A DNA stretch of 32,000 bases from Acaryochloris marina S15. GTDB lineage: Bacteria; Cyanobacteriota; Cyanobacteriia; Thermosynechococcales; Thermosynechococcaceae. Location: assembly GCF_018336915.1 (NCBI RefSeq), contig NZ_CP064923.1, positions 5,790,001-5,822,000 of the forward strand. Direction: 5' to 3'. This document shows positions 11,543 to 26,856 of the stretch, piece by piece. Below the pieces are notes generated by a model. That model did no database searches, was not told the DNA's origin, and saw only the letters and a program-made list of their open reading frames with translations. Both the position numbers and the translations under genes were made by a program. Positions within the stretch are counted from its first letter, which is position 1, and each line of letters starts with the position of its first letter.

Positions 11543-13927
11543 ATGCCTAATTTCAATTCACTCAATGATGGCGATCTAGAAAATGGTCCTGTTGTGCTAG
11601 ATGAATTCCGCGAATCTTTGCGCGTCCGCTCGGGTCAAAACTTACAAACGGGCGATCAAAATAGCGTGGTGACGGAAGGCGTCCTCAACACAGTTGTAGT
11701 AGAAGGCAATGCTGCGATTGAGAGCAATGACACGGCTGTGGAAGCCAATGGTTTAGCCAGCATCATCTTTAACCAGGGCACCATTGCTGGAGGTGTGAAT
11801 GGTGTCAGTGCGACGGGCAATCGTTTTCGCTTGTTTAACCGGGGCACTATTGCGTCTGACAGCCGAGCGGTGGATATCAGCGATGGGGATGGCAGCATTG
11901 TCATCAATTCTGGTTCGATTATTGGCACAGACGATCAGCGAAACGGGACTTTATATGTCGATGGCACCGTCGATAACTTCCGGCTTCTCAATCAACGCTC
12001 GGGCGTTATTGATGCGGGAGATGGCAATCTTGGAGATGCCGTTTCGGTACAGGTGGGTGCTACAGATGATCCCACCAGCGAGGGTATCAATATTGTCAAC
12101 AATGGTTTATTCCAAGGCCGGGGCGATGGCCCAGAGGTTTTTGCCAACGGTGCCCGAGTCGCCCCTAATGGGTCAAGCGGCCTTCGATTCTTTAATGGCT
12201 CAGGTCAGCCCGAGACTTCCGTGAGTGGATCTGTGATTAATAACGGTACGATTACCGCCGAAGTGAATGTGGGCTTTCTCGGCGGCTTGGTCGTAGAAGA
12301 TGGCGTGGGTTTTGATGGGCAGATTGTCAATGGCCGTAATGGTCTGATTGAAGGGCCTCGGAATGGTCTTTATATTGGTAATGCAGACCATGATCTAACG
12401 ATTCGCAACTTTGGTCGCATCGAGTCTGGGAGTCGGGCGGTCAATATCGACGGCACAGGTGTAGATTTACTGAACTATGGCACCATCACGGGTACCGGCA
12501 ATCAGCGTAATGGCACTGTTTACTCAGATGCCACAGCAGATAACTACCGAATTTTTAATGGCCGTTCGGGCGTCATTGATGCAGGAGTTGGTAACCAAGG
12601 AGCAGGAATTGCCCTGCAGACGGGTGATATTGCAGGAGATGTTGTTAATTCGACGTTAACTAACTTTGGCACGATACAGGGTCGAGGTCAGGCTGCTGCT
12701 AACTTAGGTTTAGCAGGTGATGGTCTACGAATTTTTTCTGGTGTCGATGGTGGAGGAACCGTCTATCGTGGCAACATTTTTAACCAGGGTCGAATTCTTT
12801 CCGAAAGTTTGCAAGGTCCGACTGCTGCAGTTCGATTTTCCAATGGCCTGGCCTATGAAGGGACATTGACCAACGCCAGAGGAGGACTCATTGATGGTGC
12901 TCAAAATGGCTTGTATTTTGGCGATGCTGACCATGATGCAACGGTGATTAATCGTGGCACCATTCAAAGCGGTAGCCGAGCTGTCAACATTGATGGTTCT
13001 GGTGTTGATTTGCGTAACTTTGGTCAAATTTTGGGGACAGATGATCAACGTAACGGTACAGTTTATGCCGACTCAACTGCAGAAGACTACTCCATTTTCA
13101 ATGGACGTTCAGGGTTGATTGACGCCGGTGAAGGCAATAACGGTGCTGGTGTTTCCTTGCAGACAGGCGATGAAGATGGTGATATCGTCGAAGCCTCACT
13201 CCGCAATGACGGTTTAATCCGAGGCCGTGGAGATGGCGTAGGTAATCAGGCTGGCGACGGTGTTCGTCTGTTTACGAGTGTGGCTGGATCCACAACCTTT
13301 GCGGGGGATTTGGATAATCGAGGTCAAATCTTTGGTACGGATGATGGCATCGATATTCAAACCGGGGTAACGCTAGATGGCGACATTAATAACTCAGGTT
13401 TGCTTGCCGCAGATGAGATTGGGGTCAATATTAGTGGAGCGCTTAATGGTGAATTGAATAACCAAGGCACCATTACCGGGAGAGCTGCTGCCATTGATGC
13501 GAGTGCAGCTACTGCTGGAATCACCGTCAATAACCAAGGTGAGATCAATGGTGATGTGACCCTAAGTAACTTTGACGATATCTTTAACGGTGCAGAAGGC
13601 ACGGTTAATGGCGTCATTAATGGAGGTGGAGGCAACGACCTTCTGATTGGGGGGCGTCAAAACGATATCTTTGTAGGAGGTGACGGTCAGGATACGTTCG
13701 TATTTGCAGCAAATTCAGGGGTTGATATCGTCACAGATTTTGCAACTAGCGAGATTGATGTTCTTGATTTCAGCGCTGTCTTTAGTGATATCAACGAAAT
13801 TGTGGGGGTTGGCGGCGCTGCGACTCAGGTGGGTACTGCCACCTTGATTGATTTGGGAAATAACAATGAAGTAGTGCTATTGAATGTCAGTGTAAGTGAC
13901 TTAACAGTGGATAACTTTATCGTTTAA
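11543..13927 (+). CDS. Secreted repeat protein, probable T1SS substrate (beta-helix-like N/G/D-rich repeats plus C-terminal RTX nonapeptides)
   Basis: 794 aa with no N-terminal signal peptide. There are three ~181-190-aa tandem repeats (SRAV(D/N)I.. at aa 107, 297, 478). GGGGNDLLIGGRQNDIFVGGDGQDTFVF (aa 694-721) is a hemolysin-type Ca-binding repeat block, followed by a ~70-aa non-repeat C-terminus. The gene lies next to an ABC/HlyD pair. Confidence 0.85.
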   Translation: MPNFNSLNDGDLENGPVVLDEFRESLRVRSGQNLQTGDQNSVVTEGVLNTVVVEGNAAIESNDTAVEANGLASIIFNQGTIAGGVNGVSATGNRFRLFNRGTIASDSRAVDISDGDGSIVINSGSIIGTDDQRNGTLYVDGTVDNFRLLNQRSGVIDAGDGNLGDAVSVQVGATDDPTSEGINIVNNGLFQGRGDGPEVFANGARVAPNGSSGLRFFNGSGQPETSVSGSVINNGTITAEVNVGFLGGLVVEDGVGFDGQIVNGRNGLIEGPRNGLYIGNADHDLTIRNFGRIESGSRAVNIDGTGVDLLNYGTITGTGNQRNGTVYSDATADNYRIFNGRSGVIDAGVGNQGAGIALQTGDIAGDVVNSTLTNFGTIQGRGQAAANLGLAGDGLRIFSGVDGGGTVYRGNIFNQGRILSESLQGPTAAVRFSNGLAYEGTLTNARGGLIDGAQNGLYFGDADHDATVINRGTIQSGSRAVNIDGSGVDLRNFGQILGTDDQRNGTVYADSTAEDYSIFNGRSGLIDAGEGNNGAGVSLQTGDEDGDIVEASLRNDGLIRGRGDGVGNQAGDGVRLFTSVAGSTTFAGDLDNRGQIFGTDDGIDIQTGVTLDGDINNSGLLAADEIGVNISGALNGELNNQGTITGRAAAIDASAATAGITVNNQGEINGDVTLSNFDDIFNGAEGTVNGVINGGGGNDLLIGGRQNDIFVGGDGQDTFVFAANSGVDIVTDFATSEIDVLDFSAVFSDINEIVGVGGAATQVGTATLIDLGNNNEVVLLNVSVSDLTVDNFIV
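11861..13340 (+). repeat. Three in-frame tandem repeats (~543-570 bp each) inside the 794-aa gene
   Basis: The protein segments starting at aa 107, 297 and 478 align by eye, for example GSRAVNIDG(T/S)GVDL.N(Y/F)G.I.GT..QRNGTVY.D.TA(D/E).Y.IFNGRSG(V/L)IDAG.GN.GAG(I/V).LQTGD. Confidence 0.8.
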
Positions 13928-13934
13928 GCCAGAT

Positions 13935-13962
13935 AGCGGCAGGCTCCAAGCCTGCCGCTTTG
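13935..13962 (+). terminator. Rho-independent terminator candidate
   Basis: A perfect 10-bp stem, AGCGGCAGGC (13935-13944) / GCCTGCCGCT (13950-13959), with a 5-nt loop, starts 8 nt after the stop codon. It is followed only by a short T run (TTTGG). Confidence 0.65.
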
Positions 13963-14751
13963 GTCATCCGTGGTTTCGTCAGATTGCCATCGGTTTGGGC
14001 AGGGTTGCTCTGATGGGTTCCCATTCAACAGTAAGGCTATGACTCAACCCATTTGCTAATAAGTCGGTCGCTGCTAATTGGATAGCTGTAGCAAAGCAAA
14101 ATTCCCAGCCCTATTCCGCTATATCTACTCGCCGAGCTTGCCTAGCTAATGAGCTAACGATTCTGCCTTTATGGTCTGGGAAGTGGATGCATAAATATTC
14201 ACTCACTAACTGATAAATAGTTGGCTGCCTCAACCACTGGTATCAAGCAACATTAGTTCTGATTAGAAAAGGTAGTTTATGACTGAGTGTAAATCTTGGA
14301 TAACTAATATCACTTAAATTATTTAGCCAAGATAGTAATAATTCTAGAAAGAATAACGAGAAGGCTGTGGTTTCTTTCAGTTGCTTATTATGAAGAGTCA
14401 GGAATATAGCTATAGCAGTCTAAAACAGATGGTCATTGATAATACAATTTTACGTAGATTGCAAAACATAAAAGAATTATTTGCCTTGGAAAAATAATTT
14501 TACTAGATGTTAACGTTCCTAGTTGGTGCTGATCTATCAGTTGTAAATATATGGGTTAAGATTCCGAGGGATGATGACACAGCGAGATCCTATTGCTGAC
14601 TGAAACGACGCCATGAGAGTTACATCTTCCTAGTCAGCAGGGTATGGTAACAATACTTTCCTTTCACCCTTACCTTCATCTGTTTTATTCATGTTGTCTC
14701 TAAATTGATCTTTAGACTTGAATAACCCTCTCTATTAAGAGTATTTTTGAT

Positions 14752-15504
14752 ATGATCTCTGCCCTACCGATTGTGGATAAAACTGTTCAACCCTCTGATT
14801 TAATTCCTTTGCTTGGGCAATATCAGCTGCTTCCTCAGTTGCTGAAAGAACTGATTATTGACCAAGCTATTCAAGACGTTCAATTAGGCCCAGAAGAAGT
14901 TGTACAAGCAGTAGAGCAGTTCTATCGTCAGCATCAAATCGGTGAGGAAGCTAGACGTGAGGCTTGGCTAAAGCATTATCGGATGACGCCTCAGCAGTTG
15001 GCTGCGCAAGCCCAACGGCAGTTGAAACTGCATAAATTTAAACTCCAAACCTGGAATAACCAGGTAGAGTCTGATTTTCTCCAGCAAAAAGGGCAGTTTG
15101 ATCAATATGTTTATTCTTTGATCCGAGTGGCCAGTGCCGAAGTGGCTCAAGAATTATATTTCCGACTGCAGGCCGGTGAACAAGCGTTTGCAGATTTGGC
15201 AACCAAATATTCTCAAGGTCCTGAAGCACAAACAGGTGGATTGATTGGTCCTGTTACTGCAGCCAATCTACATCCCACGTTAGTGCAAATTCTGACGAGT
15301 GCTCAACCTGGGCAAGTACGCCCTCCTATTCGCTTAGGTGAATGGTTTGTGATTGTCAGTTTGCAAAAATTGATCTCGGCTCAACTAGATGCCCCGCTGC
15401 GACAACAATTGCTGGAGCAGCGTTTTAATGAGTGGCTCCAATTGCAGCTTAAATCGGCTGCAATTTCTGATGACTCTATTGCTGTTTCGGCGCGAACACC
15501 ATGA
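14752..15504 (+). CDS. Parvulin-type (PpiC/SurA-like) peptidyl-prolyl isomerase family protein, probably non-catalytic
   Basis: 250 aa. The C-terminal half matches the parvulin fold pattern (FADLATKYSQGPEAQTGGLIGPV...LHPTLVQIL...GQVRPPIRLGEWFVIV). No signal peptide is visible. Its stop overlaps the ABC start (ATGA at 15501-15504). Confidence 0.75.
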   Translation: MISALPIVDKTVQPSDLIPLLGQYQLLPQLLKELIIDQAIQDVQLGPEEVVQAVEQFYRQHQIGEEARREAWLKHYRMTPQQLAAQAQRQLKLHKFKLQTWNNQVESDFLQQKGQFDQYVYSLIRVASAEVAQELYFRLQAGEQAFADLATKYSQGPEAQTGGLIGPVTAANLHPTLVQILTSAQPGQVRPPIRLGEWFVIVSLQKLISAQLDAPLRQQLLEQRFNEWLQLQLKSAAISDDSIAVSARTP

Positions 15505-18458
15505 CTTCAGCCATCCTTGCTCTGGAATCCTTTCTTAAGGATCTACCCGGTTTTAACCAGCTTTCAGAAGCGGTTTTATCTTCGGTGGCGAAAGAATTTC
15601 AACCATTGCGCTATCCCATGGGCCGCCCCCTTGTGTCTAATCGGGCCATGCCTCAAGACTTTACCCTGATCTATCAAGGGCAGGTGCGCCTATTAGGTTA
15701 CGATCCTCGCACCGATACTCCAGTGACCCTCAGTCTGTTGGGACCGGGTGCTGCAGTCGGGTGGATTAGCCTGGTGCGCCAAATTCCCTGTGAGACGGCC
15801 ATTGCTTCGGTGGAAACAGTGGGATTAAAGTTGCCTGCGGCGACTTTTTTAGAGCTGCTGGAACATGAATCGAGCCTGGCTCAAGTGTATGAGCAGCAGG
15901 CTAATATTCTCGAAGCGTTTGATGTTCTGGGCCAACAGTTATTGATCCGGGCGGATGGCTCGACTGACCTGAAATTTTTGGCAGAAAGAGCTTTACCAGC
16001 AAGTCTGATTCAAAAGTGCCCCATCCGAGATATCTCTATTGATCAATTACAGCCCAATTTGGAATGGTTTGTGAGTGGAGGGTCCATTCCTGACTTGGAA
16101 ATTGGTCAACCCTTGGAAACCTGTCTAGAGCAGCTCAATGGCACGGTCTCTCGTTCAGAAACACTCCGGTTGATTGGGTTATCACCGATCAAGGCCCAGC
16201 AGCTATCGATTGAGCCAGTGGCTTCTATTCCCCAAGCAGATACTTGGGAGGATATCCCCGAAGCACCAACTTTGCTGCCTGCGGTCGATGATGCCCCGGT
16301 GAAACATGGCAAATATCCCTTTAAGTCTGGTCGGGGCCCTATTGATGCCCCGCTGGCTTGTTTCCAAATGCTGGCGCTGTATCTCAATTTGCCGTTTCGC
16401 AAGGATGTTCTGCGGCGCATTCTCAAAAACCAAGCGGAGCGCAATGGTCCAGGAATTTCCCTGCCGGTGTATGGTGCGATCTCAGAGTCGATGGGATTAC
16501 GAGCCCAGTTAGTGGAAACCCCTGCTTCTGCGTTTTCTCGTCTTCCTGCTCCTGCCTTAATCAATTGGCAAGATCGTATTGCACTGGTGTATGAAACCAG
16601 TGCTAAAGAAATCGTATTTGCGGTGCCTGAGCAAACCTTGCTGCGTCAGCACCCCGATGAATTTTTGGAAGCCTTTGATGACAAGGTGCAAGTGCTGCTG
16701 CTAGAGCGCACCCATGATACGCCCCAAAGTCGATTTAACCTGAGCTGGTTTTGGCCTTCGATTAAGAAGCACCGTAAGGTTTTGATTGAGGTGCTGATTG
16801 CCTCTTTCTTTGTGCAGTTATTTGGTTTAGCGAATCCGCTTATTACCCAGGTCATTATTGATAAAGTTTTATCCCAAGGGGCTTTGGGGACCCTGAATGT
16901 CCTCGGTATGTTGTTGGTTGGTGTGGCTGTTTTTGAAGCCTTGCTCACCAGTTTTCGGACCTATCTGTTTGTGGATACCACGAATCGGATTGATATGTCC
17001 CTAGGAGCGGAGGTGATCGATCACTTAGTCCGATTACCCCTACGCTATTTTGATAAGCGGCCTGTGGGTGAACTCGCCACCCGAGTGAATGAACTCGAAA
17101 ACATCCGTAAGTTTTTGACGGGAACGGCTTTGACGGTGGTGTTGGATGCGGTTTTCTCCGTGGTGTACATCGTCGTCATGGTGTTCTACAGCTGGCTGCT
17201 GACGATTATTGCCCTGGGTACGGTACCGTTATTTGCCTTGCTAACCTTTATTTTTGCGCCGATTATTCGCCGCCTTGCCCGGACTAAGGCTGAGGAGAAC
17301 GCCAAGACCCAGTCGTACTTGGTGGAGGTGGTATCGGGAATACAAACGGTCAAAGCTCAAAATATTGAGCTGAAATCCCGATGGCAATGGCAAGATCGCT
17401 ATGCCCGGTATGTCAGCGCTGGATTTAAGGCGGTTGTGGCATCTACAACAGCTGGCTCCATGAGTGGCTTTTTGAATAAGTTATCTAGTCTGCTCTTGCT
17501 GTGGGTGGGAGCCTATCTATTTATTGAAGGGCAGTTGACCGTGGGTGAATTGATTGCCTTTCGTATTATTGCTGGTTATACCACTGGCCCCTTGCTCCGG
17601 TTAGTGCAGCTATGGCAGAACTTCCAAGAAACAGCACTGTCCCTAGAACGATTGAGCGATATTCTCGACTATCCCCAAGAAGTGACTGAAGCAGATCGAG
17701 ATTTAATCCCCATGCCGCTAATGGAGGGGGCCGTCAAGTTTGAGGATCTGTCTTTCCGGTTTAAGGATAGTGGACCGATGCAGCTTCAGCAGGTGTCTCT
17801 CGAAGTGCCAGCTCAAACCTTTGTGGGAATTGTCGGTCAGAGTGGTTCCGGTAAGAGTACCTTGATGAAGCTGCTGATGCGACTTTATAACGCGAATGGA
17901 GGACGAATCGTAGTCGACCAGTACGACATTAGCAAGGTCGAGCTATACTCTCTCCGGCGTCAAATTGGCATGGTGCTGCAGGATAGTTTGCTGTTTGATG
18001 GCACGGTGCAAGAGAATATTGCTCTTTCGGCACCAGATGCAACGGCGGAAGAAATTGTGGAGGCCGCCAGAATAGCCTATGCCCATGATTTCATTATGGA
18101 GCTGCCCCAAGGCTATAACTCCCGAGTGGGTGAGCGGGGCTCGTCTTTGTCTGGGGGACAACGGCAACGGATTGCGATCGCAAGAATGGTACTGCAAAAT
18201 CCCCAGCTCATTATTCTGGATGAAGCCACGAGTGCACTAGATTACAACGCTGAACGGCAAGTCTGTCTTAATCTGGCAGAAGCCTTTGGTGATCGCACCG
18301 TTTTCTTTGTTACCCACCGCCTCAAAACTTTGGAATCAGCAGATATGATTCTGATGATGGATCAGGGCAATCTAGTAGAACAAGGCACCCATGCAGAATT
18401 GATGCAGCAAAAAGGTCGATATTACTGGCTTTACCAGCAACAGGAGACTCAATCATGA
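15501..18458 (+). CDS. T1SS ABC transporter with N-terminal cNMP-binding-like domain and C39-like (apparently inactive) peptidase domain
   Basis: 985 aa. It has a CAP-effector-like fold at aa ~8-125, a C39-like domain at aa ~270-405 and a 6-helix TMD. The NBD carries Walker A GQSGSGKST, signature LSGGQRQRIAIAR, Walker B IILDEATSALD and the H-loop VTHRL. Confidence 0.95.
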   Translation: MTSAILALESFLKDLPGFNQLSEAVLSSVAKEFQPLRYPMGRPLVSNRAMPQDFTLIYQGQVRLLGYDPRTDTPVTLSLLGPGAAVGWISLVRQIPCETAIASVETVGLKLPAATFLELLEHESSLAQVYEQQANILEAFDVLGQQLLIRADGSTDLKFLAERALPASLIQKCPIRDISIDQLQPNLEWFVSGGSIPDLEIGQPLETCLEQLNGTVSRSETLRLIGLSPIKAQQLSIEPVASIPQADTWEDIPEAPTLLPAVDDAPVKHGKYPFKSGRGPIDAPLACFQMLALYLNLPFRKDVLRRILKNQAERNGPGISLPVYGAISESMGLRAQLVETPASAFSRLPAPALINWQDRIALVYETSAKEIVFAVPEQTLLRQHPDEFLEAFDDKVQVLLLERTHDTPQSRFNLSWFWPSIKKHRKVLIEVLIASFFVQLFGLANPLITQVIIDKVLSQGALGTLNVLGMLLVGVAVFEALLTSFRTYLFVDTTNRIDMSLGAEVIDHLVRLPLRYFDKRPVGELATRVNELENIRKFLTGTALTVVLDAVFSVVYIVVMVFYSWLLTIIALGTVPLFALLTFIFAPIIRRLARTKAEENAKTQSYLVEVVSGIQTVKAQNIELKSRWQWQDRYARYVSAGFKAVVASTTAGSMSGFLNKLSSLLLLWVGAYLFIEGQLTVGELIAFRIIAGYTTGPLLRLVQLWQNFQETALSLERLSDILDYPQEVTEADRDLIPMPLMEGAVKFEDLSFRFKDSGPMQLQQVSLEVPAQTFVGIVGQSGSGKSTLMKLLMRLYNANGGRIVVDQYDISKVELYSLRRQIGMVLQDSLLFDGTVQENIALSAPDATAEEIVEAARIAYAHDFIMELPQGYNSRVGERGSSLSGGQRQRIAIARMVLQNPQLIILDEATSALDYNAERQVCLNLAEAFGDRTVFFVTHRLKTLESADMILMMDQGNLVEQGTHAELMQQKGRYYWLYQQQETQS

Positions 18459-20026
18459 CCATTACTCAAGATTTCGCTGGCGACCCCCAAAGACCTTCGA
18501 CTGAATCAGAGCAAAATGTATTACCCCTAACAAAGGGCCGTCCCACAAAAGAGAAGCCGTTTGATCGGCCAGTCATTCTCCAGCAATCTCCGGTTTGGTC
18601 TAGAGCGATCATTTGGGGGATTGTGGGCGCTGCTTCGGCAGCATTGGCATGGGCCTGTTTGTTTCAAATTGAAGAAGCGATTCCTGCAACTGGCCAGCTA
18701 GAACCCCAGGGAGCAGTCAAACCCATCCAATCTCCGGTTACAGGTGTTGTGACAGAGATCAAAGTTGACGAAGGACAGTTGGTTAAAGCCGGCGATCCAT
18801 TGATTTTTCTGAACGCAAAAGGCACGAACTCTGAAATCAAGTCCCTAGAAGATCAACTTGACCAACTCCGTGAAGTCAACAAATATTACCGCCAGCAGCT
18901 AGAAGGAAATAGTGTTGCCCCGCTTCCAGATGTGATTAATGTCGAGTTGATTAATGCGACGCGTGATCGGCGGGCCCTCGTCGCTGAGAATAAACTATTC
19001 AGAGCCCAACTGAATGGAGCGAAAAACGCTAAAGCCTTTTCACCGGAAGAGCAACAGCGCTTGAAGTCTGGGTTGTTGCAAGGCTCGTCTAGTGTAGCGG
19101 CTGCCCAAGCCCGAGTGATGCAAGGTGAAAAACAGCTGCGCCAAATTGAAGTGCAGCTAGAGCAGACCAAAATTCAATTAGCTAGTGCTCAACAGACCTT
19201 GTCTCTGAATCAAGAGATTGTTAAAGATATTGAAGAGGCCCACAAGAAAGGGGCAATTGCCCGGGTTCAATTTAAACGTCAAGAAGATGAAGTGCAGTCT
19301 GGTCAAGCAGAAGTCTCTCGTCTGCAGCAAGAGCAAATTCGCTTGTTACGTCAAATGGAGCAAATTGGTCAAGAGAAGGTACAGTCTCAAGCACAAGCTC
19401 TCAATACAGTAGCCACCAACCAGCGAGATTTGTTGGATCGGATTGCCGCAAATGAAAAACAGATCACGGAAATCGATAGCCAGCTCACCAAAGCGGTCGT
19501 TGATAATAAAAGAGCAATTGCAGATTTAAACAGTCGTTTGACACAAGCCCAACTAACTCGCGAGTATCAAGTGTTGAAAGCACCTGTGGATGGGTTGGTG
19601 TTTGATCTCCAGCCTAGTGGACCTGGCTTTGTGGTGAATGCGAGTGAGCCGATTTTGAAAATTGTGCCGTCTGATAGTCTAAAGGCCAAAGTCTACATCA
19701 CCAATAAAGATATTGGCTTTATTCAAACAGGAATGCCTGTCGATGTACGAGTCGATTCGTTTAACTTTAGTGAATTTGGCGATATTGAAGGAACCATTGA
19801 GTCCATTGGCTCTGATGCTTTACCGCCAACGGAGGTGCGCCAGTTTTACAGCTTTCCAGCCATGGTGCAGTTAGATTCACAAACATTAGAGGCTAAGGGG
19901 CGTAATCTAGATTTGCAGTCTGGGATGTCTGTCAGTGTCAATATCAAAGTACGCAAGCGACCTATCATTAGTTTGATTACCGATCGCTTTTCCAAGGAAG
20001 CCGATGGCATTAAGCATTTACGCTAA
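18455..20026 (+). CDS. HlyD-family periplasmic adaptor (membrane fusion protein) of the T1SS
   Basis: 523 aa with a single N-terminal TM (AIIWGIVGAASAALAWACLF), a lipoyl-like segment, a long Q/E-rich coiled coil and a C-terminal beta-barrel segment. There is an ATGA overlap with the ABC gene at 18455-18458. Confidence 0.9.
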   Translation: MTITQDFAGDPQRPSTESEQNVLPLTKGRPTKEKPFDRPVILQQSPVWSRAIIWGIVGAASAALAWACLFQIEEAIPATGQLEPQGAVKPIQSPVTGVVTEIKVDEGQLVKAGDPLIFLNAKGTNSEIKSLEDQLDQLREVNKYYRQQLEGNSVAPLPDVINVELINATRDRRALVAENKLFRAQLNGAKNAKAFSPEEQQRLKSGLLQGSSSVAAAQARVMQGEKQLRQIEVQLEQTKIQLASAQQTLSLNQEIVKDIEEAHKKGAIARVQFKRQEDEVQSGQAEVSRLQQEQIRLLRQMEQIGQEKVQSQAQALNTVATNQRDLLDRIAANEKQITEIDSQLTKAVVDNKRAIADLNSRLTQAQLTREYQVLKAPVDGLVFDLQPSGPGFVVNASEPILKIVPSDSLKAKVYITNKDIGFIQTGMPVDVRVDSFNFSEFGDIEGTIESIGSDALPPTEVRQFYSFPAMVQLDSQTLEAKGRNLDLQSGMSVSVNIKVRKRPIISLITDRFSKEADGIKHLR

Positions 20027-20079
20027 GTCGTAAAAGCCCTGACTTAGTGGCATGTGCTTTCAGCTCAGCAGCTTGGTTC

Positions 20080-20109
20080 AAAAAAGCCCTGACGAAATGT
20101 CGTCAGGGC
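20080..20109 (-). terminator. Rho-independent terminator for the small minus-strand ORFs
   Basis: The stem is GCCCTGACG (20086-20094) / CGTCAGGGC (20101-20109) with a 6-nt loop. On the minus strand it is followed by TTTTTT (complement of 20080-20085). There is no U-tract in the plus orientation. Confidence 0.65.
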
Positions 20110-20174
20110 AGCATCATCAGGTATGTGACATGAGCGCTGGATCATTCGCCTAGAGATGTGCTATTTCTTCGGAA

Positions 20175-20303
20175 TCACTCTGACTCGTTCATACTTTCTA
20201 CATCTAAATCGAGCAGCATAAAACTTTTAATCTCTGTATCAGATAAAAAGAGAGACTGCTCAATAGGGGAGATAGTTGTGCTTAAAGTGTTGTGGAGAGT
20301 CAT
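20175..20303 (-). CDS. Small acidic protein, paralog A (42 aa, C-terminally shorter)
   Basis: My translation is MTLHNTLSTTISPIEQSLFLSDTEIKSFMLLDLDVESMNESE. It is paralogous to 20385..20585. The ORF is below the track threshold and is supported by the synonymous-rich substitution pattern between the two copies. Confidence 0.4.
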   Translation of the reverse strand: MTLHNTLSTTISPIEQSLFLSDTEIKSFMLLDLDVESMNESE

Positions 20304-20384
20304 GGTTGTAAGCGTCTGGGGGAGTGCTGTCTGAAAGGCAAAGGGATCAATATTGGATATGTGGTGTAAGGCTAGGTCATTCGC

Positions 20385-20585
20385 CTAGAGATGTGCCAAC
20401 TCTCCTTCAATTCCAAGCCCTTCATTCATACTTTCTACATCTAAATCGATCAGCATGAAACTTTTAATTTCTGCGTCAGATAAAAAGAGAGACTGCTCAG
20501 TATAGGAGGCAGTTGTGCTTAAGGTGTTGAGAAGAGTCATGGTTTGAATGTTTTGGAGAAGTGCTATCTGAGAGGTCTGAGTCAT
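20385..20585 (-). CDS. Small acidic protein, paralog B (66 aa; alternative start ATG 20540 gives 51 aa)
   Basis: This is the ORF-track entry. Its core EQSLFLSDAEIKSFMLIDLDVESMNE is shared with paralog A. Over 40 aligned codons there are 7 synonymous and 6 non-synonymous differences. Confidence 0.5.
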   Translation of the reverse strand: MTQTSQIALLQNIQTMTLLNTLSTTASYTEQSLFLSDAEIKSFMLIDLDVESMNEGLGIEGELAHL

Positions 20586-20773
20586 TGGGGTAGTCGGGGT
20601 TGGTTGCTTATAGATATAGACTAACCATTACAGTAAGCTTGAGAGTCAAGAGAAATTTGTATAAGAATAAATTATACTTGGCGTTTCTTCCATATACCTG
20701 ATGGCTTAAAAGCCATATATAGAAAGACTTTACGTATGACTAATGTTTTTTTGTGGATATACATTTTGCAGAC

Positions 20774-20807
20774 AAAAAAACTGCTCTGGCAGCACCAGAG
20801 CAGTTTT
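20774..20807 (-). terminator. Rho-independent terminator of the giant RTX gene (bidirectional-looking)
   Basis: The stem is CTGCTCTGG (20781-20789) / CCAGAGCAG (20795-20803) with a 5-nt loop. An A7 run precedes it and T4 follows on the plus strand, so the minus-strand RNA reads hairpin plus U7. It lies 65 nt downstream of the stop at 20872. Confidence 0.8.
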
Positions 20808-20871
20808 CGCTTTAAAGTCTAAGGAGTTTTACGGGGTCTTGGCCGCTTTACGACTTCAGAATTAGGAGCCC

Positions 20872-23800
20872 CTAGATATAGATGAAAGAGCTGTCTTCCA
20901 AGCTGAAAACAGAGTCACTCATAACATTAGCAATCAGCTCATCAGCACCACCATTAGAATCCAAATAGATTCCGGTGCCGCCCATGCCAGGTGCTGAAGC
21001 GCCTAAGACATAGTCGGATGCGGAGCCACTGAGTTGGATCATATCCTCACCTCCATTGAAGTCGGTAATGACAGCAAAGTCATTCAGACCTGCAGATGTA
21101 TCATCGCCGTCGTTGTAGTAGGCAACATCACCACCGAGGACGAAATAGTCTGCACCTTCATCTCCAGTCAGATAGTCAATGGAACCACTGCCTTTGAGGG
21201 TGTCGCTGTTGGCACCGACTAAGACATCAGCACCACTCCCACCCAGAAGGGTGTCATTACCTTCGTGGCCGATTAAGGTGTCGTTGTTAGCACCGCCTTC
21301 CAGCATATCGTTGCCAGCGCCAGCATAGAGGGCATCGGTCCCGTCACCACCTAGCAGTTGGTTATTTCCAGTGCTGCCAAACAGAACATCATTGCCAACG
21401 CCACCATCTAATAAGTCATTGCCCGTATCGGCATAAAGGGAATCATTTCCTTCTCCTCCTAGAAGTGTGTCAATACCAGACCCACCGAAGAGCTGGTCAT
21501 TGCCACTGCCCCCTTCGAGCACATCATTACCGCTACCACCTTTGAGGTGGTCTGCACCCGCACCCGCACTAAGGATATCGTCATTACTGCCGCCGTCTAG
21601 GGTGTCTTTACCGTCGCCACTGGTGAGGGTGTCATTGCCTGATCCACCTTTGAGGTTGTTGTTGCCACCCGTCGTGGTCAAGACATCATCCCCGGCACCT
21701 CCATCTAAACGGTCACTGCCGCTGCCACTAGAGAGGGTGTCATTTCCACCCTGGCCATAGAGCTTCACTTTGGCACCATTAGTGGATGTAATTTGGTCAT
21801 TACCACTGTTGGCAGAAAGGGTTTCGATACCAACGGCATCGATATTCATGTTCAGGTCAGAGGTGCTTTGAAAGTAAGCCGTATCTGTACCTGTACCACC
21901 TTCAACAACGGTATCGTCAGCATCGAAGTAGAGTTTATCGTTGCCCGCGCCCCCGATGAGTTGGTCTGCACCTGCATCCCCTTTCAGGATGTCGTTTCCA
22001 GACCCGGCATCTAAGAGGTCATCGCCACTGCCGCCAAGCAGGCTGTCGTTTCCACTATCAGCGCTGAGGGTATCGTTTCCAGACCCACCGTCTAAGGTGT
22101 CTTTGCCCCCGGCGGTAGTCAAGCTATCGTTGCCGTCGCCACCGAATAGGGCATTGTTACCACCGCTAGAAGATAAGACATCGTTACCACTGCCACCGTC
22201 TAAACGATCGTTGCCGCTGCTGCTAGTGAGGGTGTCATCGCCAGCCAGACCATACATTTTAATGTTGGTGCCATTGCTAGAGGTGAACTGGTCGTTCCCA
22301 GCATTACCGTGAATTTCTTCAATGCTGACATCATCAATATTGAGAGTTAGACCATCGCTACTTTGGAGTTTGGCAACATCTGTACCGTCGCCACCGTCAA
22401 AGGTATCGTCACCATCGAAGTTAATGGTATCGTTACCTGCGCCGCCCAATAAAGTATCGGCCCCAGCATTGCCTGAGAGAACATCGTTGCCCTCTTGACC
22501 TTCTAGGAGGTCATCTCCCGTACCACCCGAGAGAATGTCATTGCCTGCCCCAGCAAGAATGGTGTCATTACCGATTCCCCCATCGAGATTGTCATGGCCG
22601 GTGCCTCCAGTGATGCTGTCATCTCCAGCTTCACCATGAATTTCAACATTCTCGGTCCCGGAATTGGTAAAGACATCATCGCCGCCAGAACCGTAGGCCA
22701 ATTCAATTTGGCTAGCGCCTAGATCTAGGGTGACGGGCTGATTGCCTTGAGCACGAGCGATGTCGTAACCGTCGCCACCATCGACTACGGTATCATCCGC
22801 ATCGAACAGCAATGTGTCAGAGCCGTCACCCCCATACAGTTCATCTGCTCCGTCGCCACCGACCAACATGTCATTCTCAGTGCCACCTTCGAGGATGTCA
22901 TCCCCAGCATTACCTTCAAGGTAGTCATGGCCTGCCCCACCGGAAATCAGGTCGTTGCCTTCACCTGCGATGGCAGTATCTTCACCCGCTCCACCAGCTA
23001 GGGTATCGTCACCAGTGCCGCCTTCTAGATAGTCATTAGCTGAGCCACCGGATAACTGGTCATCACCACCGTTACCGAACAAAGCAACCGTCGTAGAAGC
23101 TGGAGTACCAGCACCATTCGTATTAGTGAAAATATCATCCCCACTATTGCCGTGGGCTTCATTAAAGCTGTTAGCACCTGCATCAAAGACGACACCTTCA
23201 GCCGATTCCACCATGGCGATGTCATAGCCTTCACCACCCAGGATTTGGGTGTCAGCAGCATCAATGAACACAACGTCATTGCCATCGCCACCTAAGAGAG
23301 TATCTGCGCCTGCACCGCCACTAATGGCATCATTGCCGCTGCCCCCATCGATAAAATCATCTCCAGCATTACCGGAGAGCCATTCGTCATTACCTGCATT
23401 ACCCGAAATGACGTCAGCGCCTTCGCCCCCTTCAATGACATCTTGGCCGTCGCCACCACTGAGTTGGTCAGCGCCTTCACCGCCGCTCAAGTAGTCGTTG
23501 CCTGCATCACCTGAGAGGACATCATCTCCGGCATCACCCATAAGGACGTCTTTTTCTTCTCCACCGAAGAGGGTATCGTTGCCAGCGCCCCCTTCCAGAA
23601 TGTCTAAGCCAGCTTCTCCTTTCAGGAGATCGGCATTATCGCCGCCACCCAAGGAGTCGTTGCCAGCACCGCCGTATAGCGTATCTAGTCCAGCATCGCC
23701 TTGGAGAATGTCATTGCCAGCGTCACCGGTCAGTAGGTCATCACCGGCACCGCCGAGGACTGTATCATCGGCTTCACCCCCAGAAACGGTATCATTTCCT

Positions 23801-25569
23801 TCGCCCCCAGAAACGATGTCGCTGCCGAGACCGCCTTCTACGAGGTCATTGCCAGCACCACCGTCGACCCAAAAGTCATCTCCTTCGCCCCCTTTAAGAA
23901 TGTCATCGCCAGCATCGCCTTTGAGGACATCGTTTCCGGCATCTCCTTCTAAGACATCATTGCCGAGACCACCGCTGAGAGTGTCACTGCCGAGACCACC
24001 ACTGAGCTGGTCCTGGCCTTCGCCCCCATCGACGATGTCATTGCCGGCATCACCTGTGAGAACGTCATCGCCTGCATTACCGAGGACGGTGTCATTGCCG
24101 TCGCCACCGCTAACAGTATCTTGGTCTGCCCCACCCGCAACGACATCATTGCCGAGGCCGCCTTCAACGAGGTCATTGCCTGCACCACCGTCAACCCAGT
24201 AGTCGTTGCCTTCTCCAGCATTCAGGTAATCATTACCCGCATCGCCCATTAGGACATCATTACCCGTGTTACCGAGGAGGATATCTGCACCTTCCCCACC
24301 GGACATCACATCTTCGCCAGCCCCGCCATCGATTAAATCAGCGCCTTCGCCACCGGAGAGCCAACCATCGTTACCCGCGCCACCGTCTATGGTGTCATTG
24401 CCCTGGCCACCTTCGATGGCATCCATACCCTCATCTCCAGAGAGCAGGTCATCGCCTAATCCACCACTAACAAAGTCATGACCAGCACCACCGCTGATGG
24501 TGTCTTGTCCCGCATCTCCGTAAAGAACGTCTTGGTCACCTTCGCCAGTAATAAGGTCGTCGCCTTCGCCACCGTGAATATTGTCATCGCCTTGACCCCC
24601 GGATAAGGTATCTGTACCCGTGCCTCCGTCCATATGGTCAACTTGTTCGCCGCCGAACAGGGCATCGTCGCCTGCTCCCCCGGTGAGGGTGTCATCATTG
24701 GCACCGCCATAGAGGGTATCGTTGCCTTCACCCCCATCCATGATGTCGTTACCTTCCTCGCCGTAGAGGGCATCGTTGCCTTCGCCGCCAGACATCCAAT
24801 AGTCGTCACCCGCACCCCCTATCAGCTCATCGTTGCCGGCTTCTCCCATGAGGATGTCGTTGCCGGATTGACCTAGGATTTTGTCATCTCCCAGACCGCC
24901 CTTAAGGGTGTCGGCACCTGCACCGCCGTCTAGTAAGTCAGCACCAGTACCGCCGTCGATATAATCTGTACCAGAACCCGCTAATAAAGTATCTTGGCCT
25001 TCATTGCCAAGGAGGTTGTCATTGCCTGTGCCACCGGTGACAAAATCATTGCCTTCGCCGCCACTGAGAATATCGTTGCCTGCGTCTCCATGCAGGGTGT
25101 CGTCGCCAGCTTCACCGGCTAGCCAGTAGTCATCTCCTTGACCACCAATGATCATGTCTGCGCCTTGATCGCCCATGATGGCGTCTTTACCTAAGCCACC
25201 GATGAGGACATCATTACCAACGCCACCTAGTAAGAGGTCGTCGTTTTGGGTGCCGCTAATAGCATTGGGATCAGCGAAACCCGCACCACTCTCATCTACT
25301 GGACCGCTATAGATATAGTTGCCATTGGCGTCTTGTTGCCAGTTTTGGGTACCGCCTTCATCACCATGCATCCAGTCGTTGCCTTGGCTGCCAGAGAGCG
25401 TATCGTTGCCCGTGCCACCTTTAACGACATCATCACCTTCGTTACCCGAAAGCCACATATCATCGCCTTCGCCACCGATAATGGTATCGTCGCCTTCATT
25501 GCCGACGACGACGTCATCTGCTTCTGAGCCAAATAGTGCTTCGCTGTTTTCAGTACCAAATACTTGCAT
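20872..25569 (-). CDS. Giant RTX / hemolysin-type calcium-binding repeat protein, probable T1SS substrate
   Basis: 1565 aa, starting directly with repeats and no signal peptide. GGxGxDxLx nonapeptides run along almost the whole length, well over 100 units by eye. Four ~75-aa spacer modules interrupt them, and a ~110-aa non-repeat C-terminus (..DFAVITDFNGGEDMIQLSG..SVFSLEDSSFIYI) follows. Confidence 0.95.
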   Translation of the reverse strand: MQVFGTENSEALFGSEADDVVVGNEGDDTIIGGEGDDMWLSGNEGDDVVKGGTGNDTLSGSQGNDWMHGDEGGTQNWQQDANGNYIYSGPVDESGAGFADPNAISGTQNDDLLLGGVGNDVLIGGLGKDAIMGDQGADMIIGGQGDDYWLAGEAGDDTLHGDAGNDILSGGEGNDFVTGGTGNDNLLGNEGQDTLLAGSGTDYIDGGTGADLLDGGAGADTLKGGLGDDKILGQSGNDILMGEAGNDELIGGAGDDYWMSGGEGNDALYGEEGNDIMDGGEGNDTLYGGANDDTLTGGAGDDALFGGEQVDHMDGGTGTDTLSGGQGDDNIHGGEGDDLITGEGDQDVLYGDAGQDTISGGAGHDFVSGGLGDDLLSGDEGMDAIEGGQGNDTIDGGAGNDGWLSGGEGADLIDGGAGEDVMSGGEGADILLGNTGNDVLMGDAGNDYLNAGEGNDYWVDGGAGNDLVEGGLGNDVVAGGADQDTVSGGDGNDTVLGNAGDDVLTGDAGNDIVDGGEGQDQLSGGLGSDTLSGGLGNDVLEGDAGNDVLKGDAGDDILKGGEGDDFWVDGGAGNDLVEGGLGSDIVSGGEGNDTVSGGEADDTVLGGAGDDLLTGDAGNDILQGDAGLDTLYGGAGNDSLGGGDNADLLKGEAGLDILEGGAGNDTLFGGEEKDVLMGDAGDDVLSGDAGNDYLSGGEGADQLSGGDGQDVIEGGEGADVISGNAGNDEWLSGNAGDDFIDGGSGNDAISGGAGADTLLGGDGNDVVFIDAADTQILGGEGYDIAMVESAEGVVFDAGANSFNEAHGNSGDDIFTNTNGAGTPASTTVALFGNGGDDQLSGGSANDYLEGGTGDDTLAGGAGEDTAIAGEGNDLISGGAGHDYLEGNAGDDILEGGTENDMLVGGDGADELYGGDGSDTLLFDADDTVVDGGDGYDIARAQGNQPVTLDLGASQIELAYGSGGDDVFTNSGTENVEIHGEAGDDSITGGTGHDNLDGGIGNDTILAGAGNDILSGGTGDDLLEGQEGNDVLSGNAGADTLLGGAGNDTINFDGDDTFDGGDGTDVAKLQSSDGLTLNIDDVSIEEIHGNAGNDQFTSSNGTNIKMYGLAGDDTLTSSSGNDRLDGGSGNDVLSSSGGNNALFGGDGNDSLTTAGGKDTLDGGSGNDTLSADSGNDSLLGGSGDDLLDAGSGNDILKGDAGADQLIGGAGNDKLYFDADDTVVEGGTGTDTAYFQSTSDLNMNIDAVGIETLSANSGNDQITSTNGAKVKLYGQGGNDTLSSGSGSDRLDGGAGDDVLTTTGGNNNLKGGSGNDTLTSGDGKDTLDGGSNDDILSAGAGADHLKGGSGNDVLEGGSGNDQLFGGSGIDTLLGGEGNDSLYADTGNDLLDGGVGNDVLFGSTGNNQLLGGDGTDALYAGAGNDMLEGGANNDTLIGHEGNDTLLGGSGADVLVGANSDTLKGSGSIDYLTGDEGADYFVLGGDVAYYNDGDDTSAGLNDFAVITDFNGGEDMIQLSGSASDYVLGASAPGMGGTGIYLDSNGGADELIANVMSDSVFSLEDSSFIYI
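21445..22428 (-). repeat. Internal ~492-bp (164-aa) super-repeat, two copies, within the RTX gene
   Basis: Residues 1048-1211 and 1212-1375 align by eye: (I/L)(N/Y)FD(G/A)DDT..GG.GTD.A..QS(S/T)(D/S).L.(L/M)NID.(V)(S/G)IE....N(A/S)GNDQ(F/I)TS(S/T)NG...K(M/L)YG..G(D/N)DTL(T/S)S.SG(N/S)DRLDGG.G(N/D)DVL...GGNN.. Confidence 0.75.
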
Positions 25570-25742: not shown

Positions 25743-26699
25743 TTAAGGAACAGGTTGTGGATAGCTAACGGTTGAGTTATCAACCACGATGGGTTCATCC
25801 ACAATCACGTCTTCAAGATTGGCATCGATTAAATTGCTGCCAAAGAGGTTAACCCCTCGTAAATCTGCTCCCTGCAAATTGGCTCCCATGAGAATGGCTT
25901 CGCTGAGGTTGGCACCTCGCAGGTCGGCTTCACATAGACAGGCACCACCCAAGTTGCTGCCAATTAAACTGGTTTCGGTGAGGGTGGCTTCACTTAAATC
26001 TGTGCCAATGAGAACTGCATGGGATAAGTCAGCTTGTTTGAGATAGGCCCCGATCATATCGGCTCCGCTGAGATAGGCTTCTCGAAATGTGCATTGCTCT
26101 AGGGCGGCTTCATTCAAACTCGCTAGCATCAGCTCAGCCCGATTGAAATTGGCATGGCTGAGTAAGGTGCCGCTTAATTTAGCACCAATCAACTTCAGGC
26201 CCGCAAAATGGCGTTCGCCTGCGGCATATTTTGCCAGCATGCCTCTGCTGATATCTTCGTCTCCCTCAAGGACTGTCAGACTTTGGTCTTCAATCGTTTG
26301 CAGCAGTTTTAAGAGAGATTGGGATTGGGGGCCGACGGTGCTAAGCTGCTGTAATTGTTCAAACCGGCGTCCGAGCTGCTGTCGGGTTTGGTTGAGTTCT
26401 GTGAGTTGTTGATCTAAGTCTTCGATATGGCAGGCCACCATCTGCTGCATGCGCTGTTGAGCATCTTTGGACTGTTCGCCGATGTCCAGCAGTTCTTTAA
26501 TTTCATGGAGGGAAAGGCCAAAGTTTTGGGCACTGCGAATAATTTGTAATCTCTCTTGGGCTGCTATGGTGTAGAGTCGATAACCGGATCGATTCCGTTC
26601 AGGTTGTTTGAGTAGCCCGAGTTGCTCATAATAGCGAATCGCTTGGGGAGAGACACCAAATTTACTGGCTAATTGGCCAATGAGCAGTCCAGTCGTCAT
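25743..26699 (-). CDS. MerR-family HTH regulator fused to a C-terminal pentapeptide-repeat domain
   Basis: From ATG 26699 the sequence is MTTGLLIGQLASKFGVSPQAIRYYEQLGLL..RSGYRLY..LQIIRSAQNFGLSLHEIKELL, the MerR HTH plus wing. A Q-rich coiled coil follows, then ~27 consecutive A(D/N)Lxx-type pentapeptides (aa 186-322 of the long ORF). The longest ORF starts at 26768. Confidence 0.85.
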   Translation of the reverse strand: MTTGLLIGQLASKFGVSPQAIRYYEQLGLLKQPERNRSGYRLYTIAAQERLQIIRSAQNFGLSLHEIKELLDIGEQSKDAQQRMQQMVACHIEDLDQQLTELNQTRQQLGRRFEQLQQLSTVGPQSQSLLKLLQTIEDQSLTVLEGDEDISRGMLAKYAAGERHFAGLKLIGAKLSGTLLSHANFNRAELMLASLNEAALEQCTFREAYLSGADMIGAYLKQADLSHAVLIGTDLSEATLTETSLIGSNLGGACLCEADLRGANLSEAILMGANLQGADLRGVNLFGSNLIDANLEDVIVDEPIVVDNSTVSYPQPVP

Positions 26700-26856
26700 T
26701 TTGTTATCAGGGATTGAAAATCCAGCTTTTTTATCAGTTATTCTTAGGATGCCCAAATAAAAAGGCAATTGAGCGGAGTAAAGACGACAAACTCCAGCAA
26801 AAATTGCCTCAGATAGATGTAAGGTTTATTGAAAATAGTTTGGATTTGACTATTAA

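Follow-up and report, generated by a model that had tools for sequence, protein, structure and literature searches.

The 32,000-nucleotide stretch of the Acaryochloris marina S15 genome analysed here (contig NZ_CP064923.1, positions 5,790,001 to 5,822,000; hereafter the window) carries the gene of an ATP-binding cassette (ABC) exporter of the HlyB family, in an operon with genes for an HlyD-type adaptor and a peptidyl-prolyl isomerase (PPIase) and beside genes for repeats-in-toxin (RTX) proteins. The exporter's C39-like domain (CLD) is devoid of catalytic residues, and its domain of the cyclic nucleotide-binding (CNB) fold is devoid of the residues that contact a cyclic nucleotide monophosphate (cNMP). 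The protein is probably the inner-membrane ABC exporter of a cyanobacterial type I secretion system (T1SS) of the HlyB type, in which the CLD docks the cargo and the CNB-like domain acts as a regulatory input for a signal other than cAMP or cGMP. The exporter is made up as follows (coordinates are those of the window).

15501-18458, plus strand: ABC exporter of a T1SS, 985 residues, assigned from its domains, the TIGR01846 score and the HlyB match
15501-15905, plus strand: cNMP-binding-like (CNB-fold) domain, residues 1-135
15759-15815, plus strand: equivalent of the phosphate-binding cassette, residues 87-105, G-W-I-S-L-V-R-Q-I-P-C-E-T-A-I-A-S-V-E, located by profile alignment to the cassette of the regulatory subunit of protein kinase A (PKA)
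15906-16190, plus strand: middle module of helices and a small sheet, residues 136-230, of no recognisable family
16191-16307, plus strand: linker, residues 231-269, predicted to be disordered and poorly conserved
16308-16715, plus strand: CLD without catalytic residues, residues 270-405, assigned by Pfam, profile alignment to PCAT1 and Foldseek
16782-17594, plus strand: transmembrane domain, residues 428-698 (Pfam ABC_membrane, 5.8e-58)
17784-18233, plus strand: ATP-binding cassette, residues 762-911 (Pfam ABC_tran, 5.5e-33), with Walker A 'GQSGSGKST' and signature 'LSGGQRQR' in the translation

All four Pfam domains of the protein scored above their gathering cutoffs, including cNMP_binding (PF00027, residues 37-122, 31.5 bits against a cutoff of 27.5) and Peptidase_C39 (PF03412, residues 283-395, 23.4 bits against 22). 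Residues 285-982 reached 734.1 bits with the NCBIfam model TIGR01846, type_I_sec_HlyB (cutoff 725.55), and the best match among solved structures was Escherichia coli HlyB (7sgr, E = 3e-165), aligned from the CLD through the C-terminus. An exact look-up identified the protein with WP_212663838.1 of Acaryochloris sp. 'Moss Beach', which bears the NCBI name 'peptidase domain-containing ABC transporter'. Two open reading frames (ORFs) run antisense within the gene (16106-16564, 152 residues, and 16646-16948, 100 residues, both on the minus strand); nothing suggests that they are genes.

Relatives were collected with two family motifs, which were searched for in species-representative genomes. The scan recovered at least 589 related stretches, and 80 loci were kept for analysis, nearly all with record titles that name cyanobacteria. 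The 71 full-length relatives from these loci form the conservation alignment to which the counts below refer; conservation is expressed as the mean frequency of the commonest residue and amounted to 0.83 in the transmembrane domain, 0.82 in the ATPase, 0.67 in the CLD, 0.65 in the whole CNB domain and 0.48 in the linker. The genome scan was far more informative than an initial homologue search, which had yielded 31 fragmentary proteins. Profiles were built for the CNB domain (36 sequences, first 145 residues) and for the CLD (36 family sequences). Furthermore, the CNB domain was used in a HMMER search against 1.84 billion representative proteins, which produced 570 matches at E <= 1e-3, and 168 related CNB domains were subsequently recovered from the proteins collected. 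The homology signals for both N-terminal folds are well above chance and go beyond by-eye resemblance. For the CLD the family profile was required: a single-sequence phmmer search of the PDB with this fragment returned a chance match only. Residues 1-420 were modelled with AlphaFold2 at a mean predicted local distance difference test score (pLDDT) of 84.

The CNB family profile matched solved CNB domains in the PDB down to E = 1e-15. In an ungapped profile alignment with the PKA regulatory subunit ('GELALMYGTPRAASV' against 'GWVSLVRGVPCETAI'), the PKA cassette G-E-L-A-L-M-Y-G-T-P-R-A-A-S-V was paired without gaps with the family sequence G-W-V-S-L-V-R-G-V-P-C-E-T-A-I. The cassette Glu, which contacts the ribose, therefore corresponds to Trp88, and the Arg, which contacts the phosphate, to Cys97. 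An alignment with a Toxoplasma CNB domain again placed the Arg column at C97, and a gapped alignment with cGMP-dependent protein kinase (PKG) moved it by one position, to P96. Arg was found in this column neither in any alignment nor in any of the 71 relatives. The replacement of both Glu and Arg, which a preliminary description of the window had read from the sequence by eye, is thus upheld by the profiles. The CNB part of the model (pLDDT about 92) was superposed by Foldseek on the cGMP-bound CNB-B domain of PKG I-beta with a target template modelling (TM) score of 0.86 and a root-mean-square deviation of 1.7 Å.

The same description had called both accessory domains degenerate. The term holds for the C39-like domain but is misleading for the CNB-like domain, where the cassette has been replaced by the best-conserved motif of the N-terminal region and represents an altered, conserved variant, not a decayed one. 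Residues 92-103 are the most conserved stretch of 12 residues within residues 1-420 (mean 0.87) and contain the family motif R-G-V-P-C-E-T-A-I-A-S. Across the cassette region G87, E98 and S103 occur in all 71 relatives, T99 and A102 in 70, R93 in 68, C97 in 67 and W88 in 66. Among the 168 related CNB domains, the Arg column is occupied by Cys in 136 and the next position by Glu in 156. Such a pattern speaks for purifying selection acting on some other function. Since the cassette was rebuilt into a conserved motif without Glu and Arg while the beta-barrel fold was kept, the CNB-like domain is best regarded as a selected, working module.

Non-canonical binding of cAMP or cGMP by this module, for example via Arg93, which lies within the cassette four residues upstream of the Arg column, is unlikely. 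The near-constant Arg93 and the very close fold of cGMP-bound PKG CNB-B would be in line with it, as would a class III nucleotidyl cyclase gene located 9 kb off (27571-29241). Cyclase genes are numerous in cyanobacteria, however, so this proximity means little. Moreover, the ribose-contacting Glu is Trp and the Arg column is Cys, and the next position holds an invariant Glu in place of the usual phosphate-contacting Ser, Thr or Ala, so that repulsion of the phosphate would be expected, which argues further against canonical cyclic-nucleotide binding. In Nostoc PCC 7120 HetC, whose N-terminal region is organized in a related way, a 480-residue N-terminal fragment bound ppGpp (Kd 59 µM), GTP and GDP, whereas cAMP, 2-oxoglutarate and c-di-GMP were not bound, and function was abolished when codons 2-278 of hetC, a segment that takes in the cNMP domain, were deleted (PMC10986499). 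By analogy, a guanine nucleotide (such as ppGpp or GTP) is suggested as the only candidate ligand for which there is an experimental hint. We tentatively consider, at less than even confidence, that the rebuilt cassette (Trp, Arg, Cys-Glu-Thr-Ala) is a new CNB-fold sensor for a non-cyclic signal such as a guanine alarmone, or for redox state via its Cys, which would gate an RTX or S-layer T1SS nearly throughout the phylum.

Alternatively, and with a minor though appreciable probability, the domain binds no small molecule, and its conserved motif serves for docking, with the PPIase, the substrate, the ATPase domain or an adjacent protomer of the HlyB/HlyD-like assembly as the partner. Such a role would agree with a conservation that is strong and unlike that of any known ligand cassette, with the presence of the PPIase gene in the same operon (about 70 of 80 loci), and with the flexible linker of about 40 residues, which would let the CNB domain reach other parts of the complex. 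It would be at odds with the position of the cassette in known CNB-fold proteins, where it lines the ligand pocket, and with the nucleotide binding observed for the related HetC fragment (PMC10986499).

The CLD profile aligned with the peptidase domain of PCAT1 (7n87/4ry2) at E = 3e-8. In this alignment the catalytic Cys of PCAT1 (T-D-C-G-A-A-C) corresponds to A283, its second, non-catalytic Cys to C287, the catalytic His (A-H-F-V-V) to R359, the Asp of A-D-P to V375, which precedes the invariant P376, and the oxyanion-hole Gln (V-R-Q-Y-D) to the Gly of 'KSGRG'. In a pairwise alignment, HlyB Tyr9 was likewise paired with A283. The by-eye placement of Ala283 in the Cys column with Cys287 off it, of Arg359 in the His column and of Val in the Asp column was therefore correct, and the codon coordinates given at the time were exact for A283 (16347-16349) and R359 (16575-16577) as well as for the cassette residues G87-A102 (15759-15806).

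Substitution of the catalytic residues is common to the family. The Cys column is occupied by Ala (32), Gly (21), Ser (8), Val (5) and Glu (5), the His column by Ser (46), Arg (12), Asn (4), Gly (4) and Thr (3), and the Asp column by Val (53), Ile (13), Ser (2), Asp (2) and Ala (1); none of the 71 full-length relatives has Cys in the first of these columns or His in the second. By contrast, Ala286, Cys287, Met290, Trp356 and Pro376 are fixed in all of them. The CLD modelled on its own gave a pLDDT of 88.9 and Foldseek TM values of 0.71 with the C39 domain of PCAT1, 0.61-0.65 with the HlyB CLD, 0.69-0.74 with LahT and 0.66-0.73 with ComA-PEP, so that modelling and superposition confirmed both folds named in the preliminary description.

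Because Cys, His, Asp and oxyanion Gln have all been lost, the CLD is predicted to be incapable of cutting a leader peptide. This bears on the function that current annotation would imply, namely that the protein is a transporter for bacteriocins or other ribosomally synthesized and post-translationally modified peptides (PCAT/AMS type) whose C39 domain removes a double-glycine leader during export. We regard this as very improbable. Several observations could be cited in its favour: (i) Peptidase_C39 scores above the Pfam cutoff; (ii) the CLD profile is closest to that of the active PCAT1; (iii) the NCBI name refers to a peptidase domain; (iv) the gene order SurA-ABC-HlyD was classed as a bacteriocin cluster (PMC3140520). 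They are outweighed by the replacement of the whole catalytic set in the window protein, by the HlyB-like transmembrane and ATPase part, and by the lack of a double-glycine precursor ORF, of which none was recognized by eye among the ORFs of at least 25 residues in the flanks of the operon (13900-14800 and 20000-20900). Group I clusters, moreover, average only 0.35 candidate bacteriocin precursors per cluster (PMC3140520).

It is also hardly conceivable that the two accessory domains are functionless evolutionary relics. The canonical functional residues are indeed gone from both, but both are highly conserved across cyanobacterial orders and confidently folded in the models, the cassette equivalent matches the ATPase in conservation, and C287, M290, W356 and P376 of the CLD are invariant. 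In addition, the hetC deletion described above abolishes function (PMC10986499), and the CLD of HlyB is essential for secretion (PMC8277102).

The region between the two domains was also inspected. The middle module (pLDDT 80-92) contains the invariant residues Trp189, Ser192 and Arg223; no match was found in Pfam or, by profile search, among PDB sequences. Foldseek alignments of about 250 columns to tandem-CNB proteins, together with the tandem CNB domains of the metagenomic transporter P0176, had prompted the idea that the module is a decayed second CNB domain. This idea is unsupported, as hhalign paired nothing with the CNB profile beyond the 18 residues that the two alignments have in common. 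The linker varies in length between relatives, with pLDDT below 50 for residues 231-247 and 260-269. P0036, a protein of 1137 residues from the representative library, joins a CNB domain of the transporter family and the beginning of the CLD, as far as 'ACFQM', to a P-loop region ('GSSGSGKS') of no relation to it; judged by eye, its C-terminus looks like that of a histidine kinase. This protein is possibly chimeric or misassembled.

The transporter gene is flanked by the following genes.

14752-15504, plus strand: parvulin-type (PpiC/SurA-like) PPIase, first gene of the operon (Pfam Rotamase, 1.3e-11)
18455-20026, plus strand: HlyD-family membrane fusion protein (Pfam HlyD_3, 2.6e-25; TIGR01843, 207.7 bits, just below the cutoff of 208.65)
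20872-25569, minus strand: 1565-residue RTX protein, the likely substrate (47 HemolysinCabind stretches, Pfam E = 1e-252; 70 GGxGxD motifs)
11543-13927, plus strand: 794-residue repetitive protein with a short RTX block near its C-terminus ('GGGGNDLLIGGRQNDIFVGGDGQDTF'; two GGxGxD motifs), a second possible substrate

The TGA stop codon of the PPIase gene overlaps the start codon of the ABC gene as ATGA, and the stop codon of the latter overlaps the ATG of hlyD in the same way, by 4 nucleotides. About 70 of the 80 related loci, drawn from many cyanobacterial orders, show the order PPIase-ABC-HlyD on one strand, among them those of Acaryochloris, Thermosynechococcaceae, Leptolyngbya, Nostoc, Scytonema, Calothrix and Moorena. 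Close paralogues of the entire module are present in A. marina MBIC11017 on the plasmid pREB1 (locus L003) and on the chromosome (L001); one shares 92% and the other 88% identity with the N-terminal region of the window protein, and each has a large RTX-like ORF nearby. Since no signal peptide was obvious by eye on the PPIase, this protein may work in the cytoplasm as a partner of the secretion system. No gene for TolC, the type of channel through which HlyB-type systems export, was found in the 32-kb window.

The preliminary description had placed two RTX genes next to the transporter. One of them is clear, and its product carries no double-glycine N-terminal leader, whereas the 794-residue protein has only the short C-terminal RTX block, is without a Pfam match and shows a weak C-terminal match to NF052454. 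The HlyB-type situation proposed there, in which a CLD goes with uncleaved RTX substrates, fits the TIGR01846 score above the trusted cutoff, the overlapping hlyD gene and the neighbour with 47 RTX repeats. RTX-like ORFs were located at a distance of up to 8 kb in 11 of 50 long loci, which by a rough estimate is more frequent than expected by chance.

Further features of the window lie downstream of the operon. Between the hlyD stop (20026) and the end of the RTX gene (20872), positions 20136-20575 hold a tandem direct repeat of about 200 nucleotides in two copies that are 84-85% identical and spaced by about 236 nucleotides. Each copy bears a small minus-strand ORF (20175-20303, 42 residues; 20385-20585, 66 residues), with the common peptide '..TLSTT.S..EQSLFLSD.EIKSFML.DLDVESMNE'. 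The product of the cyclase gene (minus strand) combines FHA, GAF and class III adenylate/guanylate cyclase domains; beside it are genes for a MerR-pentapeptide-repeat protein (25743-26768, minus strand) and a Ser/Thr kinase with DUF4189 (29590-31116, plus strand). An Rfam scan of the window gave no match.

Taken together, the following mode of action is proposed. The parvulin PPIase, the ABC exporter and the HlyD adaptor would be produced from translationally coupled genes as a secretion machinery, and the cargo of the pump would be large RTX-type proteins that are not cleaved, for example the neighbouring 1565-residue protein. By analogy with HlyB, the CLD, whose papain-like fold is kept, would most likely hold and position the unfolded substrate at the pump entrance, and the PPIase may act on the cargo in the cytoplasm. 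Flexibly tethered, the CNB-like domain would most likely serve as the regulatory input that couples secretion to the state of the cell, with a ligand that is presumably neither cAMP nor cGMP. Export of an uncleaved RTX protein by the window system appears likely by comparison with systems in which CLD transporters go with large, uncleaved RTX cargo (PMC8277102, PMC6363468).

Several points weigh against this proposal. RTX genes are adjacent in only about one fifth of the related loci, which implies that substrates are mostly encoded elsewhere. The assignment of the Synechocystis sp. PCC 6803 protein BAA18265.1, on which part of the comparison below is based, to Sll1180 is our assumption from its name, its length and the adjacent adaptor gene rather than from a locus tag. 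The conserved cassette motif could serve contacts between proteins instead of forming a ligand pocket, and the 480-residue fragment of HetC that bound ppGpp also held the peptidase domain (PMC10986499). As regards the CLD, the hallmark His of HlyB is absent (R359 in the His column), and the HlyB CLD went undetected by the family CLD profile at E <= 1 although PCAT1 was detected; the substrate-docking role is for these two reasons borrowed from a distant relative. Compared with that of HlyB, which keeps the His, the window CLD has lost more, and by sequence profile it stands closer to the active PCAT1 peptidase than to HlyB's CLD. Because the profile finds PCAT1 and not the HlyB CLD, and because the CNB domain is shared with active long-type transporters, the alignments suggest that this family may have lost its catalytic residues in an event separate from that in the proteobacterial CLDs.

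These results have consequences for annotation. Genome mining and NCBI names treat such transporters as peptidase or bacteriocin exporters. As the whole catalytic set is missing, clusters of this type should not count as bacteriocin loci, and the loci are likely to have been mislabelled. A protein-secretion system with such a pump is present in nearly all cyanobacteria. If the CNB-like domain is a sensor, the published 'group I bacteriocin clusters' would be regulated protein-secretion systems and not bacteriocin machinery, and the cassette residues W88, R93, C97 and E98 would offer precise handles on the control of secretion via the pump, which is of relevance to S-layer biology and to the engineering of cyanobacterial secretion. 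The advance is modest, given that both the architecture and the CLD concept, as well as what a close relative does, have already been published.

Compared with known systems, the window protein shares with E. coli HlyB (7sgr, 8dck; CLD 3zua) a CLD without catalytic Cys and an HlyD partner. The cargo of HlyB is an RTX protein, and an RTX protein adjoins the window operon. The cNMP-like domain, the middle module and the long linker of the window protein are absent from HlyB, which keeps His83 and the Asp, both of which the window protein has lost. His83 of HlyB stacks on Trp77 (PMC8277102). In the pairwise alignment W77 and the invariant Trp356 are one position apart, and this Trp may therefore have been kept. 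PCAT1 of Clostridium thermocellum (4ry2, 6v9z, 7n87), the best profile and fold match for the CLD, has the same overall exporter architecture but an active peptidase (Cys, His, Asp, Gln), which cleaves a double-glycine leader from a small peptide, and it is without a cNMP-like domain.

HetC resembles the window protein in having an N-terminal cNMP-like domain followed by a C39-fold domain and an ABC exporter; unlike the latter, it possesses an active peptidase (C347, H420) that is required for function (PMC10986499). Active C39 residues ('MDCGAACISMI', 'GFHFVV', 'VADPG') are likewise found in P0176 (full length P0193, 1067 residues), whose first CNB domain also differs from that of the window protein in its canonical cassette 'GELALVKREPRMATV' (G-E-L-A-L-V-K-R-E-P-R-M-A-T-V). 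Since P0176 pairs an active C39 domain with a canonical cassette, both ancestral-looking states exist within the long-type architecture. It is the only protein with catalytic Cys and His among the CLD-profile matches considered (the best 150 library representatives and the 31 earlier matches), and the CNB type of the window protein was in no case combined with an active peptidase in this set.

A Cys in the Arg column of a CNB domain has a parallel, by profile alignment, in domain 2 of the Euglena PKA regulatory subunit (6rsx; cassette 'GEMSLMFNQPCVATV'), which has the same fold. Arg-less CNB domains such as this one keep the Glu and belong to kinase regulators, whereas the window protein is a transporter with Trp88, and the motif after the Cys differs from the Euglena sequence, being an invariant Glu-Thr-Ala in the window family. 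Trypanosomatid PKA regulatory subunits bind nucleosides instead of cAMP.

With respect to gene order, the window operon agrees in all three genes and their succession with what Wang et al. 2011 named the 'group I bacteriocin gene cluster', which consists of SurA, a long-type ABC transporter (CAP_ED and C39) and HlyD (PMC3140520); three such clusters were counted in A. marina MBIC11017 (PMC3140520). That study is apparently silent on the missing catalytic residues, as the word 'cysteine' is absent from PMC3140520.

Finally, a full-length comparison of the window protein with the 'HlyB family' protein BAA18265.1 of Synechocystis (1011 residues) gave 56% identity. The two have four Pfam domains in common, and BAA18265.1 shows the cassette motif 'RNVPCETAIAS' and the CLD motifs 'ACFQM', 'RWQDS..LVYE' and 'AVPE' as in the window protein. 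In both cases an HlyD-type adaptor gene follows; the Synechocystis locus (L081/L082) differs in that no PPIase gene is located directly upstream, the Trp88 position is Asp, and the substrate is encoded elsewhere. In the literature no link between sll1180 and a cyclic nucleotide was found. Sll1180, Sll1181 and Slr1270 are described as exporting the RTX S-layer protein Sll1951 (PMC11594277, which cites Agarwal 2018 for this point). The architecture is already known as the 'long type' of cyanobacterial transporter (PMC3140520), and the window protein belongs to a known phylum-wide family with a characterised relative rather than to a new kind of system.

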